From IMG/VR virus record IMGVR_UViG_2695420589_000006: a stretch of DNA of 14,761 bases. One strand, 5' to 3'. The stretch is from a virus (Duplodnaviria > Heunggongvirae > Uroviricota > Caudoviricetes). Both the position numbers and the translations under genes were made by a program. The stretch's first letter is position 1. Every line of letters starts with the position of its first letter. The notes under the pieces are model-generated. The model was not told the DNA's origin. It was given only the letters and a program-made list of their open reading frames with translations, and searched no databases. Below, one piece after another: positions 3,813-14,761 of this stretch.

Positions 3813-4636
3813 TTAACTGGCGGTGACGTTGATTTCTGCAACCGCAGCAAACTCACCATTACCAGATACGACCGGAATGTTGACCTTGCCTGCAGCAACA
3901 CCTTTCACGGTGATGGTCATACCACTGACCGACACGGTGGCTTTTGTTTTATCCGCAGACACCGCACGGAAGCTCTTGTCGGTTGCGCCATCCGGCTGGA
4001 ATGCCACGGTCAGCGTGGTGCTCTGCCCTTTCACTACGGAAGCACTGGCGGGTGTCACCGTCATGCCGGTCGTCGCCGTCACCGTGCTGCGATCTTCTGC
4101 CATCGACGGACGTCCCACATTGGTGACCTTCACCGTGCGGGTAATCACCTCCTTCGCCGTCACCGCCTTACCGATACTGCTGACCCAGCCACGGAACACA
4201 TCGACCGTGCCGTTCGGGAAGCGGATTTTATAGGCACGGGTATCACCTTCATTAAACCACGCCAGCNNNNNNNNNNNNNNNNNNNNNNNNNNNNNNNNNN
4301 NNNNNNNNNNNNNNNNNNNNNNNNNNNNNNNNNNNNNNNNNNNNNNNNNNNNNNNNNNNNNNNNNNNNNNNNNNNNNNNNNNNNNNNNNNNNNNNNNNNN
4401 NNNNNNNNNNNNNNNNNNNNNNNNNNNNNNNNNNNNNNNNNNNNNNNNNNNNNNNNNNNNNNNNNNNNNNNNNNNNNNNNNNNNNNNNNNNNNNNNNNNN
4501 NNNNNNNNNNNNNNNNNNNNNNNNNNNNNNNNNNNNNNNNNNNNNNNNNNNNCGCATAAGGGTCACCGCTCCCCTTATAAACCCACAGGGTGGTCCCGGC
4601 ACCTTTCACCGGCATTGTAGGATTTGGTACAGGCAT
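3813..4636 (-). CDS. V: Major tail protein V, interrupted by the N-run 4267..4552
   Basis: ATG at 4636 with GAGGA SD, N-terminus [28 protein letters not shown]. After the gap the sequence reads …[40 protein letters not shown]… through to …AEINVTAS (ORF 3813..4199). The two halves are in different frames only because of the N-run length. Confidence 0.9.
4267..4552. other. N-run (286 nt) inside V
   Basis: Run of n characters in the sequence. Confidence 1.
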
Positions 4637-9173: not shown

Positions 9174-12925
<3,752 letters not shown>

Positions 12926-12951
<26 letters not shown>

Positions 12952-13471
12952 TCAGCAACCCCGGTATCAGTTCATCCAGCGCGGCTGCTTTGTTCATGGC
13001 TTTGATGATATCCCGTTTCAGGAAATCAACATGTCGGTTTTCCAGTTCCGGAAAACGCCGCTGCACCGACAGGGGGATCCCGTCGAGAATACTGGCAATT
13101 TCACCTGCGATCCGCGACAGCACGAAAGTACAGAATGCGGTTTCCACCACTTCAGCGGAGTCTCTGGCATTTTTCAGCTCCTGTGCGTCGGCCTGCGCAC
13201 GCGTAAGTCGATGGCGTTCGTACTCAATAGTCCCTGGCTGGAGATCTGTCTCGCTGGCCTGCCGCAGTTCTTCAACTTCCCGGCGCAGCTTTTCGTTCTC
13301 AATTTCAGCATCCCTTTCGGCATACCATCTTATAACGGCGGCAGAGTCATAAAGCACCTCATTACCCTTGCCACCGCCTCGCAGAACGGGCATTCCCTGT
13401 TCCTGCCAGTTCTGAATGGTACGGATACTCGCACCGAAAATGTCAGCCAGCTGCTTTTTGTTGACTTCCAT
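12926..13471 (-). CDS. Nu1: Terminase small subunit Nu1 (181 aa)
   Basis: ORF track 12926..13471, MEVNKKQLADIFGASIRTIQNWQEQGMPVLRGGGKGNEVLYDSAAVIRWYAERDAEIENEKLRREVEEL… with a winged-HTH N-terminus; it sits directly downstream of cosB. Confidence 0.95.
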
Positions 13472-13495: not shown

Positions 13496-13690
13496 AGAAA
13501 GGAAACGACAGAGGCCAAAAAGCCCGTTTTCAGCACCTGTCGTTTCCTTTCTTTTCAGGGGGTGTTTTAAATAAAAACATTAGGTTACGGCGAAGAAGAA
13601 CGGAAACGCCTTAAACCGGAAAATTGTCATAAATAGCGAAAACCCGCGCGCCTTCCGCCCCGTAACCTGTCGGATCGCCGGAAAGGACCC
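13496..13690 (-). other. cos: cos packaging site: cosB (R1 about 13496..13510, R2 about 13538..13552, R3 about 13597..13612), putative cosN 12-mer 13649..13660, cosQ-like segment about 13661..13690
   Basis: Minus strand reads …ACAGGTTACG GGGCGGAAGGCG CGCGGGTTTTCGCTATTTATGACAATTTTCCGGTTTAAGGCGTTTCCGTTCTTCTTCG…GAAAGGAAACGACAGG…CTGTCGTTTCCTTTCTCTG… and then the Nu1 ATG. The R-site motifs CGTTTCC(T/G)TTCT occur three times in the lambda arrangement. Confidence 0.8.
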
Positions 13691-13697
13691 GCAAAAT

Positions 13698-13710
13698 GAT
13701 AATAATTATC
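13698..13710. promoter_or_regulatory. 13-bp perfect palindrome GATAAT-A-ATTATC followed by a direct repeat of CATCTAC, in the AT-rich region between cos and the DUF3950 gene
   Basis: Read directly: gataataattatc at 13698..13710; CATCTAC at 13710..13716 and 13729..13735. It lies about 150 bp upstream of the DUF3950 ATG. Candidate operator or promoter element; no function demonstrated. Confidence 0.3.
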
Positions 13711-13859
13711 ATCTACATGTCACAACGTGCATCTACGCCATCAAACCACGTCAAATAATCAATTATGACGCAGGTATCGTATTAATTGATCTGCATCAAC
13801 TTAACGTAAAAACAACTTCAGACAATACAAATCAGCGACACTGAATACAGGGCAACCTC

Positions 13860-14093
13860 ATGTCAACGAAGAACAGAACCCGCAGAACAACAACCCGCAA
13901 CATCCGCTTTCCTAACCAAATGATTGAACAAATTAACATCGCTCTTGTTCAAAAAGGGTCCGGGAATTTCTCAGCCTGGGTCATTGAAGCCTGCCGCCGG
14001 AGACTGTGCTCAGAAAAAAGAGTTTCGCCTGAAGCAAACAAAGAAAAGAGTGACATTACTGAATTGCTCAGAAAACAGGTTAGACCAGATTGA
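13860..14093 (+). CDS. Small basic protein, DUF3950 / YlcI-YnfO-like, possibly ribbon-helix-helix (77 aa)
   Basis: ORF track 13860..14093, MSTKNRTRRTTTRNIRFPNQMIEQINIALVQKGSGNFSAWVIEACRRRL…; AGGG about 8 nt upstream of the ATG. Resembles the small prophage-encoded YlcI/YnfO proteins I recall next to packaging genes in E. coli cryptic prophages. It is on the strand opposite to the late genes. Confidence 0.7.
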   Translation: MSTKNRTRRTTTRNIRFPNQMIEQINIALVQKGSGNFSAWVIEACRRRLCSEKRVSPEANKEKSDITELLRKQVRPD

Positions 14094-14150
14094 AGCAATT
14101 TAGATAATCGTGCAGACTACGCCCCCTCATATCACATGGAAGGTACTACA

Positions 14151-14561
14151 ATGGCTCAGGTTGCCATTTTTAAACAAATATTCGATAAAGTGCGAAATAA
14201 TTTAAACTATCACTAGTTTTATTCTGAACTAAAACGTCACAATGTCTCACATTACATTTACTATTTAGCCACAGAGAATATTCATCTTGTTCTTGAAAAC
14301 GATAATACGGTTTTAATAAAAGGACAGGGTAAGGTTGTAAATGTAAGATTTTCAAAAAATAAATGCCTTATAGAAGCCACCTTAAAAGGATTCAAATCAG
14401 GAGAGTTATCATTTTACGAATACAGGAAAAATCTTGCTACAGCAGGGGTTTTCAGATGGATTACAAATATCCACGAAAACAAAAGGTATTACTATACCTT
14501 TGATAATTCATTACTCTTTACTGAGAACATACAGAACACTACACAAATATTTCCGCACTAA
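14151..14561 (+). pseudogene. DUF1398 / YbcV-like gene with a single in-frame amber (TAG) codon at 14214..14216 (codon 22 of 136)
   Basis: ATG at 14151 with GGAAGG upstream. Translation is [138 protein letters not shown], with TAA at 14559..14561. The same frame is homologous on both sides of the TAG. Absent from the ORF track because of the internal stop. Confidence 0.65.
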
Positions 14562-14606
14562 ATCATAACGTCCGGTTTCTTCCGTGCCAGAACCGGACTC
14601 GCTGGC

Positions 14607-14761
14607 ATGATGAAATATGTGTACCCGGTAACCCCGGTGTGCATCGTTTTTGATTATTCCCGCACACTCGCGCAGAAGGAGTTCCCCGTCGGGCTACGGT
14701 CTCTGTTAATACGGGAATACGGCGACGATTGGATTTGCCCCTATATTTCCAGACATCTGTT
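14607..14761 (+). CDS. Hypothetical protein, 5' partial ORF running off the window end
   Basis: ATGATG at 14607 then MMKYVYPVTPVCIVFDYSRTLAQKEFPVGLRSLLIREYGDDWICPYISRHL… with no stop before the window end. No convincing SD. Same strand as the accessory genes. Confidence 0.3.
   Translation, partial: MMKYVYPVTPVCIVFDYSRTLAQKEFPVGLRSLLIREYGDDWICPYISRHL

Follow-up and report, generated by a model that had tools for sequence, protein, structure and literature searches.

A partly decayed Qin-type copy of the cos-proximal ynfO–ydfO module with putative Fur and FNR sites

The window analysed here is the whole stretch of 14,761 nucleotides of IMG/VR record IMGVR_UViG_2695420589_000006, and we concentrated on its right end, which begins at the end of the packaging site. 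The AT-rich shift that the initial annotation had described past cosQ is confirmed: GC content drops from 0.537 at 12000–13471 in the late operon (~54%) to 0.392 at 13693–14729 (~39%), and is 0.313 inside the DUF1398 frame. The following features were found (those without an orientation are given no strand):

13684..13690, no strand: cosQ core AGGACCC (sequence; alignment to lambda-type HK629, Qin and DLP12)
13692..13716, no strand: Fur box cluster, overlapping matches to GATAATGATAATCATTATC (consensus match)
13696..13723, minus strand: predicted sigma-70 promoter towards cos and Nu1 (promoter-like score)
13758..13790, no strand: imperfect inverted repeat ATCAATTATGACG / CGTATTAATTGAT, a candidate operator (nearly invariant in 37 distinct IMG/VR variants)
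13786..13799, no strand: FNR box TTGATCTGCATCAA, a perfect TTGAT-N4-ATCAA (sequence match)
13821..13826, plus strand: candidate -10 hexamer GACAAT of the ynfO-like gene (invariant in 37 distinct variants)
13860..14093, plus strand: intact 77-aa YnfO/YlcI-family (DUF3950) gene (ORF; Pfam DUF3950 match)
14151..14561, plus strand: YdfO/YbcV-like (DUF1398) frame, inactivated by an amber codon (translation, alignment, Pfam)
14570..14598, plus strand: hairpin GTCCGGTT...AACCGGAC directly 3' of the DUF1398 stop (fold)
14607..14729, plus strand: remnant of a 53-aa 'hypothetical' ORF of close relatives (alignment)
14730..14761, no strand: first 32 nt of the IS2 terminal repeat, 32/32 nt identical to the K-12 IS2A end

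The initial annotation took this region for an accessory block read opposite to the late operon, in the place that genes such as bor take in lambdoid phages. This placement is supported, as bor lies directly next in lambda and DLP12, whereas the close relatives of the window have a KilA-N gene there; furthermore, as would be expected of a moron, the block differs from the flanking phage genes both in composition (39% vs 54% GC) and in strand. The three plus-strand ORFs that had been described reduce to one intact gene (DUF3950), one pseudogene (DUF1398) and one non-gene. The initial annotation mentioned neither the FNR box, nor the amber codon that interrupts the second gene, nor the IS2 end.

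A comparison with lambda, DLP12 and Qin, which had been proposed as a check, showed that the window and Qin are collinear across ynfO–ydfO. The genes have the order, orientation and spacing that they have in K-12 Qin (b1548, b4533, b1549; nohA-cos-ynfO-ydfO): in both, 389 nt separate the start of Nu1/NohA from that of ynfO, the ynfO gene is 234 nt long, and the next gene follows after 57 nt. The FNR 14-mer is the same, the Fur box is centred 233 nt from the start of the terminase small-subunit gene (the Nu1 ATG in the window) as at the Qin nohA site, and the ynfO cores share 98.7% nucleotide identity. There are also differences: the late operon of the window is a complete head and tail region of the lambda type, whereas that of Qin is a cryptic remnant; the cosN 12-mers differ; the ydfO-like gene of the window is only 80% identical to that of Qin and contains the amber codon; and IS2 lies downstream in the window. 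The right end of lambda and DLP12 (ylcI-ybcW-ybcV-borD) has the same order of cosQ, Fur box, FNR box and DUF3950 ORF, with both boxes and an unannotated 64-aa DUF3950 ORF present in lambda itself, and the DUF1398 gene of the window is the homologue of lambdap78 and ybcV. The initial annotation had suggested, with some doubt, an additional small lambda ORF between the corresponding genes, and indeed there is one: lambdap79/ybcW, of 68 aa and also found in DLP12, is encoded on the Nu1 strand within an insert of ~560 bp that the window lacks. Because of this insert the DUF3950 protein of lambda and DLP12 is shortened to 64 aa and ends in a different tail.

These identities mark the region as the conserved accessory ynfO–ydfO module that lambdoid prophages carry at their right, cos-proximal end, in what we call its 'Qin-type' form, with the layout cosQ, Fur box, FNR box, ynfO-like gene and ydfO-like gene. 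The module is already known: its genes and both regulator sites have long been described for the cryptic prophages of K-12, and similar sequence is present in 4,779 of 5,426 complete E. coli genomes. The copy in the window is partly decayed, with an amber codon in the DUF1398 frame and IS2 at the distal end.

The YbcV-like gene described by the initial annotation does start at a plus-strand ATG at 14151, 57 bp past the DUF3950 stop, and is of the DUF1398 family, but the frame is not open. Codon 22 is a TAG (14214–14216), where the closest relatives and Qin have TGG and DLP12 and HK629 have TTG; relative to TGG the change is G to A at 14215. The frame matches PF07166 with an E-value of 1e-42 over 119/119 positions and PDB entry 2HH8 (YdfO), a solved structure deposited as a hypothetical protein, with an E-value of 3e-67, and it is preceded by the Shine-Dalgarno sequence GGAAGG at 14138–14143. 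No in-frame start downstream of the amber codon is listed for the frame. The 60-mer bearing the amber codon had an exact copy in none of the 1,895 matching E. coli records, which makes it a private mutation. Barring a sequencing error, the DUF1398 gene is therefore dead in this copy, a pseudogene.

The hairpin that follows the frame has a folding energy of -17.6 kcal/mol, which is not significant against shuffled sequences (z only -1.35), and is without a U-tract; its stem is retained in Qin through a two-sided change (GGTT/AACC to GGCT/AGCC). It may, tentatively, be a structure that ends or stabilises the transcript. Of the promoter and terminator that a moron would bring with it, the former is predicted and this hairpin is at most a weak candidate for the latter.

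The partial ORF of the initial annotation (ATG 14607) does not stand up as a gene, as it is not conserved as coding sequence, has no match in Pfam, NCBIfam or PHROG, and is cut by IS2 at 14730. PGAP makes no call for it in E. coli 582, HK629 has a frame-breaking 1-bp indel within it, and the region is homologous to the non-coding spacer between ybcV and bor in lambda and DLP12. We conclude from these alignments that 14607..14729 is probably non-coding spacer. From 14730 on, the closest relatives carry unrelated sequence. The terminal inverted repeat of IS2 is present at this point and the remainder of the element falls outside the window; by this match, an IS2 insertion has cut off the module distally. 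The junction at 14729/14730 is absent from complete E. coli genomes, and the end of the window is probably a contig break.

The one intact gene encodes a 77-aa protein with a pI of 10.9 and 17 lysine and arginine residues. It matches Pfam DUF3950 (PF13132) with an E-value of 2e-20 (72.8 bits against a cutoff of 25) and NCBIfam NF041551 (YlcI/YnfO) with 35.2 bits against a cutoff of 30. Its position is that of YlcI/YnfO genes, beside cos and divergent from the small terminase gene with the spacing of K-12 ynfO, and the same is seen in the IMG/VR loci. Residues ~13–50 form a conserved core and the tail is variable. The initial annotation had suggested a ribbon-helix-helix (RHH) DNA binder and proposed structure prediction as a check. 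An AF2 monomer model supports this in part, with a beta-alpha-alpha core (strand 15–18, helices 19–32 and 37–52, core pLDDT about 80–86) that has the strand followed by two helices within ~45 residues of an RHH domain; however, no profile match to a solved RHH protein was significant. Indeed, PDB sequence searches with the DUF3950 protein and with two profiles gave no significant match, the best E-value being 0.42 for a weak match to CopG-family 9kkd in the correct register, and hhalign against Arc alone found the right register with a probability of only 2.6%. The protein resembles the Arc/Mnt/CopG repressors in its small size and basic N-terminal arm, and its N-I-R-F-P strand motif aligns with N-L-R-W-P of Arc; it is a candidate repressor. 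In general, the model suggests that the product is a predicted RHH DNA-binding protein. A contig scan with the DUF3950 alignment added no phylogenetic breadth, as most of its 41 loci were lambda-derived sequences in non-enteric assemblies and apparently represent control-DNA contamination.

Upstream of this gene, AGGACCC at 13684..13690 is the reverse complement of lambda GGGTCCT, which we take to be cosQ. Here the packaging site ends, and the Fur box follows immediately. The perfect 13-bp palindrome (13698..13710) reported by the initial annotation is real but its length was understated: it is ATGATAAT-A-ATTATCAT, 8+1+8 = 17 bp, at 13696–13712, and it forms the core of the Fur box cluster. 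The consensus is matched at 16/19 positions at 13692–13710 (plus strand) and at 15/19 at 13698 and 13692 (both minus strand); the box is unique in the window, where the runner-up reaches only 13/19, and the single match with three or fewer mismatches compares with none in 200 shuffles. In alignment the box is identical to the nohB site of DLP12 and differs at three bases from the sequence of Qin (nohA site) and lambda. A published study ascribes the Fur site to nohA and nohB; there, the nohA site (22.3 bits) was gel-shifted by Fur and the nohB site, which has the spelling found in the window, was scored at 25.3 bits and not shifted (PMC2189734). An earlier study that cloned Fur-regulated genes (Vassinova and Kozyrev 2000) is cited for nohA in PMC3688515.

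These data bear on the proposal of the initial annotation that the 77-aa protein autoregulates its gene through the palindrome and CATCTAC repeats. In favor of it, the protein probably binds DNA as an RHH protein, the palindrome does lie upstream of its gene, and the repeated palindromes upstream of satellite DUF3950 genes are compatible with autoregulation in the family. However, because a Fur box (16/19) is built around the palindrome, and Fur binds its Qin copy in gel shifts, an operator role for the small protein is unlikely. Moreover, it lies ~150 bp from the DUF3950 ATG and ~130 bp from the predicted start, and it overlaps a predicted promoter on the other strand. CATCTAC does occur twice, at 13710 and 13730, but 7-mer repeats of this sort are no more frequent here than chance would give (8 families in 721 bp), and Qin and lambda-type sequences lack the second copy, yet their YnfO cores are 95–99% identical in nucleotide sequence. 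The repeat was therefore rejected as an operator, and we consider autoregulation through these elements very unlikely.

The promoter on the other strand is the top promoter-like site of the region (10/12), with a -35 GTGACA (13723..13718), a 16-nt spacer and a -10 TATCAT (13701..13696), all completely covered by the Fur box. In K-12, a nohA::lacZ fusion to the homologous fragment had low activity that was independent of FNR (PMC1802558), so the promoter in the Nu1 direction may be negligible.

The FNR box is unique within the window, was equalled in 3 of 200 shuffles and is invariant in all seven aligned phage and prophage sequences; its left half is overlapped by the right arm of the ATCAATTATGACG / CGTATTAATTGAT repeat. 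The identical 14-mer in K-12, at nohA/ynfO and ylcI/nohB, was bound by FNR in ChIP-chip and EMSA (PMC1802558) and in ChIP-seq (PMC3688515), and it has the top score, 16.68, among the entries examined of the supplementary FNR-site table of the latter paper. On the plus strand, the candidate -10 hexamer would place the start of the ynfO-like transcript near 13833–13834, and hence the FNR box at -40.5/-41.5, a class II geometry.

A different reading of these sites is that Fur and FNR serve only the Nu1-direction promoter, or that the sites are non-functional, with ynfO-ydfO expressed constitutively at a low level or as antisense noise. It would account for the attribution of the Fur site to nohA/nohB in the literature and for the overlap of the Fur box with the minus-strand promoter, and it would fit the K-12 data, in which no FNR-dependent expression change was seen at the nohA/nohB locus under iron-replete conditions (PMC1802558 and PMC3688515, the latter proposing that Fur masks FNR control there). 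However, the FNR box lies ~103 bp from the predicted minus-strand start near 13689 but at -41.5 from the plus-strand start implied by the -10 hexamer, the ylcI/nohB FNR peak is listed nearer to ylcI by Myers et al. (PMC3688515), and the distance from the FNR box to the ATG is constant in the loci read, as expected of a ynfO promoter. We thus find this reading unlikely, while granting it some weight.

The spacing was read in a set of 80 box-selected IMG/VR loci, in all 75 readable members of which the ORF starts 60 nt past the FNR box; in 79 of the 80 the motif GGAAAGGACCC adjoins the palindrome. In a separate set of 120 IMG/VR loci, chosen solely by the cosQ motif and the context of the ynfO start, 117 had a Fur match of at least 16/19 adjoining cosQ and 119 an FNR-type box. 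Because the whole intergenic region is highly conserved (~80% invariant in the IMG/VR set), conservation of the boxes alone does not prove selection on them.

Taken as a whole, we favor the explanation, with a probability of roughly 0.75, that the region is a Qin-type module under two host global regulators, with a dead DUF1398 gene, a distal end truncated by IS2, and a YnfO protein that is an RHH DNA binder. Sequence identities, box matches, the fold prediction and the two lesions come from the present analysis, and the binding of Fur and FNR to the K-12 copies from the literature; which promoter each regulator controls, and that YnfO binds DNA, we infer. The control region would be read by Fur and FNR rather than by a phage repressor. 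Iron-loaded Fur would bind the palindrome that abuts cosQ and cover the sigma-70-like promoter that leads through cos into the terminase genes, FNR would bind its perfect box ~41 bp upstream of the predicted ynfO-like start as a class II activator, and YnfO would act as a small RHH DNA binder. Under such control the module would be silent in aerobic, iron-replete culture and responsive to anaerobic or iron-poor conditions, as in the gut or host. With ~130 bp between the Fur box and the predicted ynfO start downstream of it, simple occlusion is not plausible, and this scheme leaves Fur control of ynfO unexplained. The arrangement is similar to that of the 'Category 4' Fur-repressed, FNR-bound promoters such as feoABC (Myers et al. 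2013), in which a strong Fur box and a consensus FNR box likewise share an intergenic region and Fur is proposed to mask control by FNR. In contrast to these, 88 bp separate the centres of the two sites in the window, which appear to act on divergent promoters, and the regulated genes are phage genes unconnected with iron or respiration.

The order of the genes, a small RHH gene followed after 57 bp by a 136-aa gene, together with the variable C-terminal tail of the small protein, could also suggest a defence pair, of the type II toxin-antitoxin kind or another, in which the RHH protein would be the antitoxin and its gene would precede that of the toxin. However, the lambda/DLP12 insert, with its opposite-strand gene, splits the pair and replaces the tail of the first protein while the DUF1398 protein is kept, and satellites have DUF3950 without DUF1398. 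On these grounds a toxin-antitoxin pair was rejected. Neither protein had a significant match in PADLOC, and the solved DUF1398 structure was deposited as a hypothetical protein; a defence pair of any kind is highly improbable.

PICI-type satellites carry putative DUF3950 regulators of their own as well as DUF3950-TerS fusions. In PICI/cf-PICI-like elements, DUF3950 shares the core K-N-I-R-F-P...N-F-S-A-W-V-x-E-A-C with the window protein, and occurs either standalone, divergent from the primase operon, or fused to the N-terminal HTH of TerS near int. Element-specific repeated palindromes lie upstream of these genes, which, unlike that of the window, have no Fur or FNR box.

The fusion of satellite DUF3950 domains to the N-terminal DNA-binding domains of TerS hints at a link to packaging, and the Fur box abuts cosQ in 79/80 loci, so Fur might be supposed to act in packaging itself, modulating terminase at cos from its position beside cosQ. 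This is scarcely credible: Fur is not known to be required for lambda packaging, and the adjacency may just reflect a compact intergenic region. It is somewhat less remote, but still quite doubtful, that the locus is a bidirectional host-sensing switch, in which a Fur-repressed promoter reading through cos to terminase and an FNR-activated YnfO promoter would couple gut iron and oxygen to the expression of packaging genes, to the accessibility of cos or to the interplay with PICI-type satellites.

The importance of this locus is mostly low, as its genes and sites are known and most E. coli genomes have the module. What the regulon literature lists as the 'nohA/nohB' Fur and FNR sites belongs to a module that functional lambdoid phages, including lambda, retain. 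On the strength of the structural model, DUF3950 can reasonably be relabelled as a probable RHH DNA-binding domain, one that is also used by phage satellites. Furthermore, lambdap79 was recently reported to be the activator of the Vulcan defence system, and lambda escapers drop it by recombination with Qin (bioRxiv 10.64898/2026.09.04.749371), which gives them the same arrangement as the window. Since the Qin-type layout without lambdap79 escapes this recently described system, the presence or absence of the insert would be biologically meaningful. Among satellites with fusions of DUF3950 to the TerS N-terminus, GTTTAACAC is a repeated motif.

The plus-strand genes past cosQ belong to a module that is already known and very common in prophages; of 5,426 complete E. 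coli genomes, 4,779 contain sequence like it, at two sites per genome in the median, as do 177 phage records. In the window the module lies beyond a late operon of lambda type, encoded on the minus strand, with the following features.

10990..12951, minus strand: large terminase gene A
12926..13471, minus strand: Nu1
13684-13690: AGGACCC, which we take to be the cosQ core, cos coming after Nu1
13723..13696, minus strand: predicted promoter, -35 GTGACA (13723..13718), 16-nt spacer, -10 TATCAT ending at 13696, score 10/12
13786-13799: predicted FNR box TTGATCTGCATCAA, perfect consensus, unique in the window
13860..14093, plus strand: intact 77-aa ORF, pI 10.9, Pfam DUF3950 (E 2e-20), passes the NCBIfam YlcI/YnfO model
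14151 to 14561, plus strand: DUF1398 frame, Pfam E 1e-42, YdfO NMR structure 2HH8 E 3e-67
14730-14761, last 32 nt of the window: IS2 terminal repeat, identical to K-12 IS2A

The abrupt turn to AT-rich sequence described in the initial annotation is real, since GC content falls from 0.537 to 0.392 past cosQ; it is 0.313 within the second (DUF1398) gene. Judged by sequence, the genes are laid out as in the K-12 Qin prophage, where nohA is followed after 389 nt by ynfO (234 nt) and, 57 nt further on, by ydfO (411 nt), with the same spacings as here; the 57-bp gap from the DUF3950 stop to the YbcV-like start (14151) was correctly noted. In contrast, DLP12 and the lambda-type phages carry an insert of ~560 bp encoding ybcW/lambdap79 (68 aa, same strand as Nu1), so the suggestion that lambda has an extra small ORF between the corresponding genes was also right. 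The window is without this insert, which in the DLP12/lambda type exchanges the C-terminus of the DUF3950 ORF to give the 64-aa YlcI. The lambda record leaves the DUF3950 ORF unannotated, although it can be read from 48303 on the complement strand. Reportedly, lambdap79 activates the Vulcan defence system, and lambda-vir escapers lose it via recombination with Qin (2026 preprint, bioRxiv 10.64898/2026.09.04.749371); such recombination yields an insert-free layout like that of the window. A contig scan also turned up 95%-identical, lambda-derived DUF3950 loci (L015-L049) in Streptomyces, Pseudomonas, Cohnella, Flavobacterium and other assemblies, often on contigs of ~3.5 kb. These are apparently control-DNA contamination, which also loads protein databases with error-rich YlcI variants.

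A perfect 13-bp palindrome (13698..13710) and CATCTAC direct repeats had been read as a possible operator through which the 77-aa protein autoregulates. The palindrome is real but larger, ATGATAAT-A-ATTATCAT, 17 bp at 13696-13712, and it forms the core of a 16/19 match to the Fur consensus GATAATGATAATCATTATC over 13692-13710, accompanied by two overlapping 15/19 matches. The runner-up Fur-like site anywhere in the window reaches 13/19, and a match with at most three mismatches arose in 0 of 200 shuffles. The palindrome is thus a predicted Fur box, which matches Fur sites already mapped at nohA/nohB in K-12. From its centre (13704) to the Nu1 ATG at 13471 the distance is 233 nt. Among the strong Fur clusters tabulated by Chen et al. 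2007 (PMC2189734), that of nohA, confirmed by gel shift, is at position -233 with 22.3 bits, and that of nohB has the third-highest value, 25.3 bits. In the alignment, the window and DLP12 (nohB/nohD) share exactly the same sequence across the box stretch, whereas the Qin and lambda version departs from it at three bases, one being the non-constrained palindrome centre; the lambda match is 16/19 at 48447-48465. Autoregulation through the palindrome is unlikely given this Fur match, and we treat the CATCTAC repeats (13710 and 13730) as chance, the second copy being missing from Qin and lambda. The Fur box covers the best-scoring promoter-like site of the region, the predicted minus-strand promoter, which would aim through cos at Nu1, and a Nu1-ward promoter in this position fits the assignment of the Fur site to nohA/nohB in the literature. 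Table 4 of Chen et al. 2007 places the nohB cluster at -133 (PMC2189734). Because DLP12 aligns collinearly and free of indels with both the window and Qin between the nohD start and the Fur box, the nohB offset should be about -233, like that of nohA, and -133 is probably a typo.

The FNR box was overlooked in the initial annotation. A perfect FNR consensus arises in 3 of 200 shuffles, and the box is unchanged in all seven aligned sequences. In K-12, FNR bound the identical 14-mer by ChIP-chip and EMSA (PMC1802558); in Myers et al. 2013 it did so by ChIP-seq too, and at 16.68 this 14-mer scores highest among the predicted FNR sites excerpted from their supplementary table (PMC3688515). The lacZ fusion, which judging by its primers was in the nohA direction only, was weak and FNR-independent (PMC1802558). 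The box is centred at 13792.5, ~103 bp from the predicted minus-strand start, and a -10-like GACAAT lies at 13821-13826. We infer that FNR would sit at -40.5 or -41.5 of a plus-strand start near 13833-13834, ~26 nt before the ynfO ATG, which is the geometry of class II activation. The simplest model would have two divergent promoters in the cos-ynfO intergenic region, one repressed by Fur and directed toward cos and Nu1, the other dependent on FNR and directed toward ynfO. Myers et al. 2013 grouped nohA with operons whose control by FNR is, in their proposal, masked by Fur repression (PMC3688515); the divergent-promoter model offers no explanation for such masking at ynfO by Fur bound ~130 bp upstream.

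In IMG/VR, 120 loci were picked solely by their cosQ motif and the context of the ynfO start; their intergenic regions fall into 41 different sequences. Next to cosQ, 117 of the loci match the Fur consensus at 16/19 or better, and 119 have an FNR-type box. That Fur at cosQ acts in packaging strikes us as very improbable. In a second set, 80 loci picked by both boxes, cosQ adjoins in 79, the DUF3950 ORF (mostly 77 or 64 aa) starting exactly 60 nt past the FNR box in all 75 readable loci. The two boxes are conserved, but not distinctively, as the intergenic region as a whole is ~80% invariant.

The proposal that the 77-aa protein is a ribbon-helix-helix (RHH) candidate holds up. DUF3950 is a small family (182 cluster representatives among 1.84 billion) with conservation limited to residues 1-50 and freely variable tails, and its divergent members have in common the motif K-N-I-R-F-P-x-x-L-I-E-x-I ... 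N-F-S-A-W-V-x-E-A-C, which hhalign places in register with the Arc strand Q-F-N-L-R-W-P, not significantly. A first AF2 model contained confident helices at 19-32 and 34-54, and a fold search with it gave no useful matches. A second model, built from a more diverse alignment, has strands at 9-12 and 15-18 and then helices at 19-32 and 37-52, and a PDB sequence profile search returned the CopG-family protein 9kkd in the correct register at E 0.42. The predicted RHH fold is supported, not proven.

The context of DUF3950 in phage satellites fits a regulator. PICI and cf-PICI-like satellites carry a standalone DUF3950 gene (60-65 aa) divergent from the primase operon, and upstream of it are element-specific repeated palindromes (satellite loci L050 3545-3592, L055 1787-1870 and L054 3848-3979) that look like repressor operators; in one example TGGTACGTACCA occurs twice, 33 bp apart, with TATAAT in between. 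Fur or FNR boxes were found in none of the satellite DUF3950 loci. Furthermore, PICI-like satellites recurrently encode a fusion protein of ~120-129 aa that pairs DUF3950 with the N-terminal HTH, a DNA-binding domain, of a small terminase of the Terminase_2 type (L050 3770-4005 and 6880-7170; proteins P0225, P0203, P0264-P0267 and P0270). The fusion gene adjoins int, and ahead of it are repeated GTTTAACAC motifs that resemble the GTTAACA repeats found alongside HNH and TerS genes of the neighbouring prophage. The fusion protein may be a packaging-redirection factor. The ynfO and ydfO genes are unlikely to form a toxin-antitoxin or defence pair, because their coupling is interrupted in lambda and DLP12, satellites carry DUF3950 without DUF1398, and PADLOC finds nothing.

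The window's copy of the module is decaying, through an amber codon and an IS2 insertion. While the first of the three plus-strand ORFs originally described is intact, TAG at 14214-14216 breaks the YbcV-like DUF1398 frame at codon 22, which in the alignment is TGG (Trp) in Qin and in the nearest relatives compared (phages ev099 and PhiR49_1, E. coli strain 582), and TTG in DLP12 and the lambda-like HK629. An exact copy of the 60-mer centred on the amber codon occurs in 0 of 1,895 matching E. coli records, the best being one base off; the amber would therefore be private to the window copy or a sequencing error. The partial ORF from 14607 is not convincing as a gene. It matches no family in Pfam, NCBIfam or PHROGs, and PGAP leaves it uncalled in E. 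coli strain 582. In lambda and DLP12 the aligned sequence is the non-coding spacer between ybcV and bor, and a 1-bp indel breaks the frame in HK629. The module is cut off by IS2, because the last 32 nt are the IS2A terminal repeat, close relatives part from the window exactly at 14730, and this junction is absent from complete E. coli genomes, among which the insertion is private to the window's genome. The window end is probably a contig break, with IS2 the likely cause.

A hairpin at 14570-14598, 3' of the DUF1398 stop, keeps its stem in Qin by a two-sided change (GGTT/AACC to GGCT/AGCC); it is no more stable than shuffled sequence and is without a U-tract. PHROG 413 calls DUF1398 a 'head protein', a label copied for the YbcV homologue in the RefSeq records of ev099, HK629, HK630 and DE3, and lambda's own record has the older 'putative envelope protein'; this analysis found no support for either label. 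Within the late operon, four N runs totalling 864 bases (4267-4552, 9791-10079, 11463-11673 and 11740-11817) obscure some of the sequence, also in the large terminase gene. The 12-nt cohesive end at 13649-13660 is CGCCTTCCGCCC in the window and E. coli strain 582, compared with AGGTCGCCGCCC (window plus strand) in lambda-type HK629, Qin, DLP12 and PhiR49_1; the cosB and cosQ flanks of the variant end are otherwise lambda-like.
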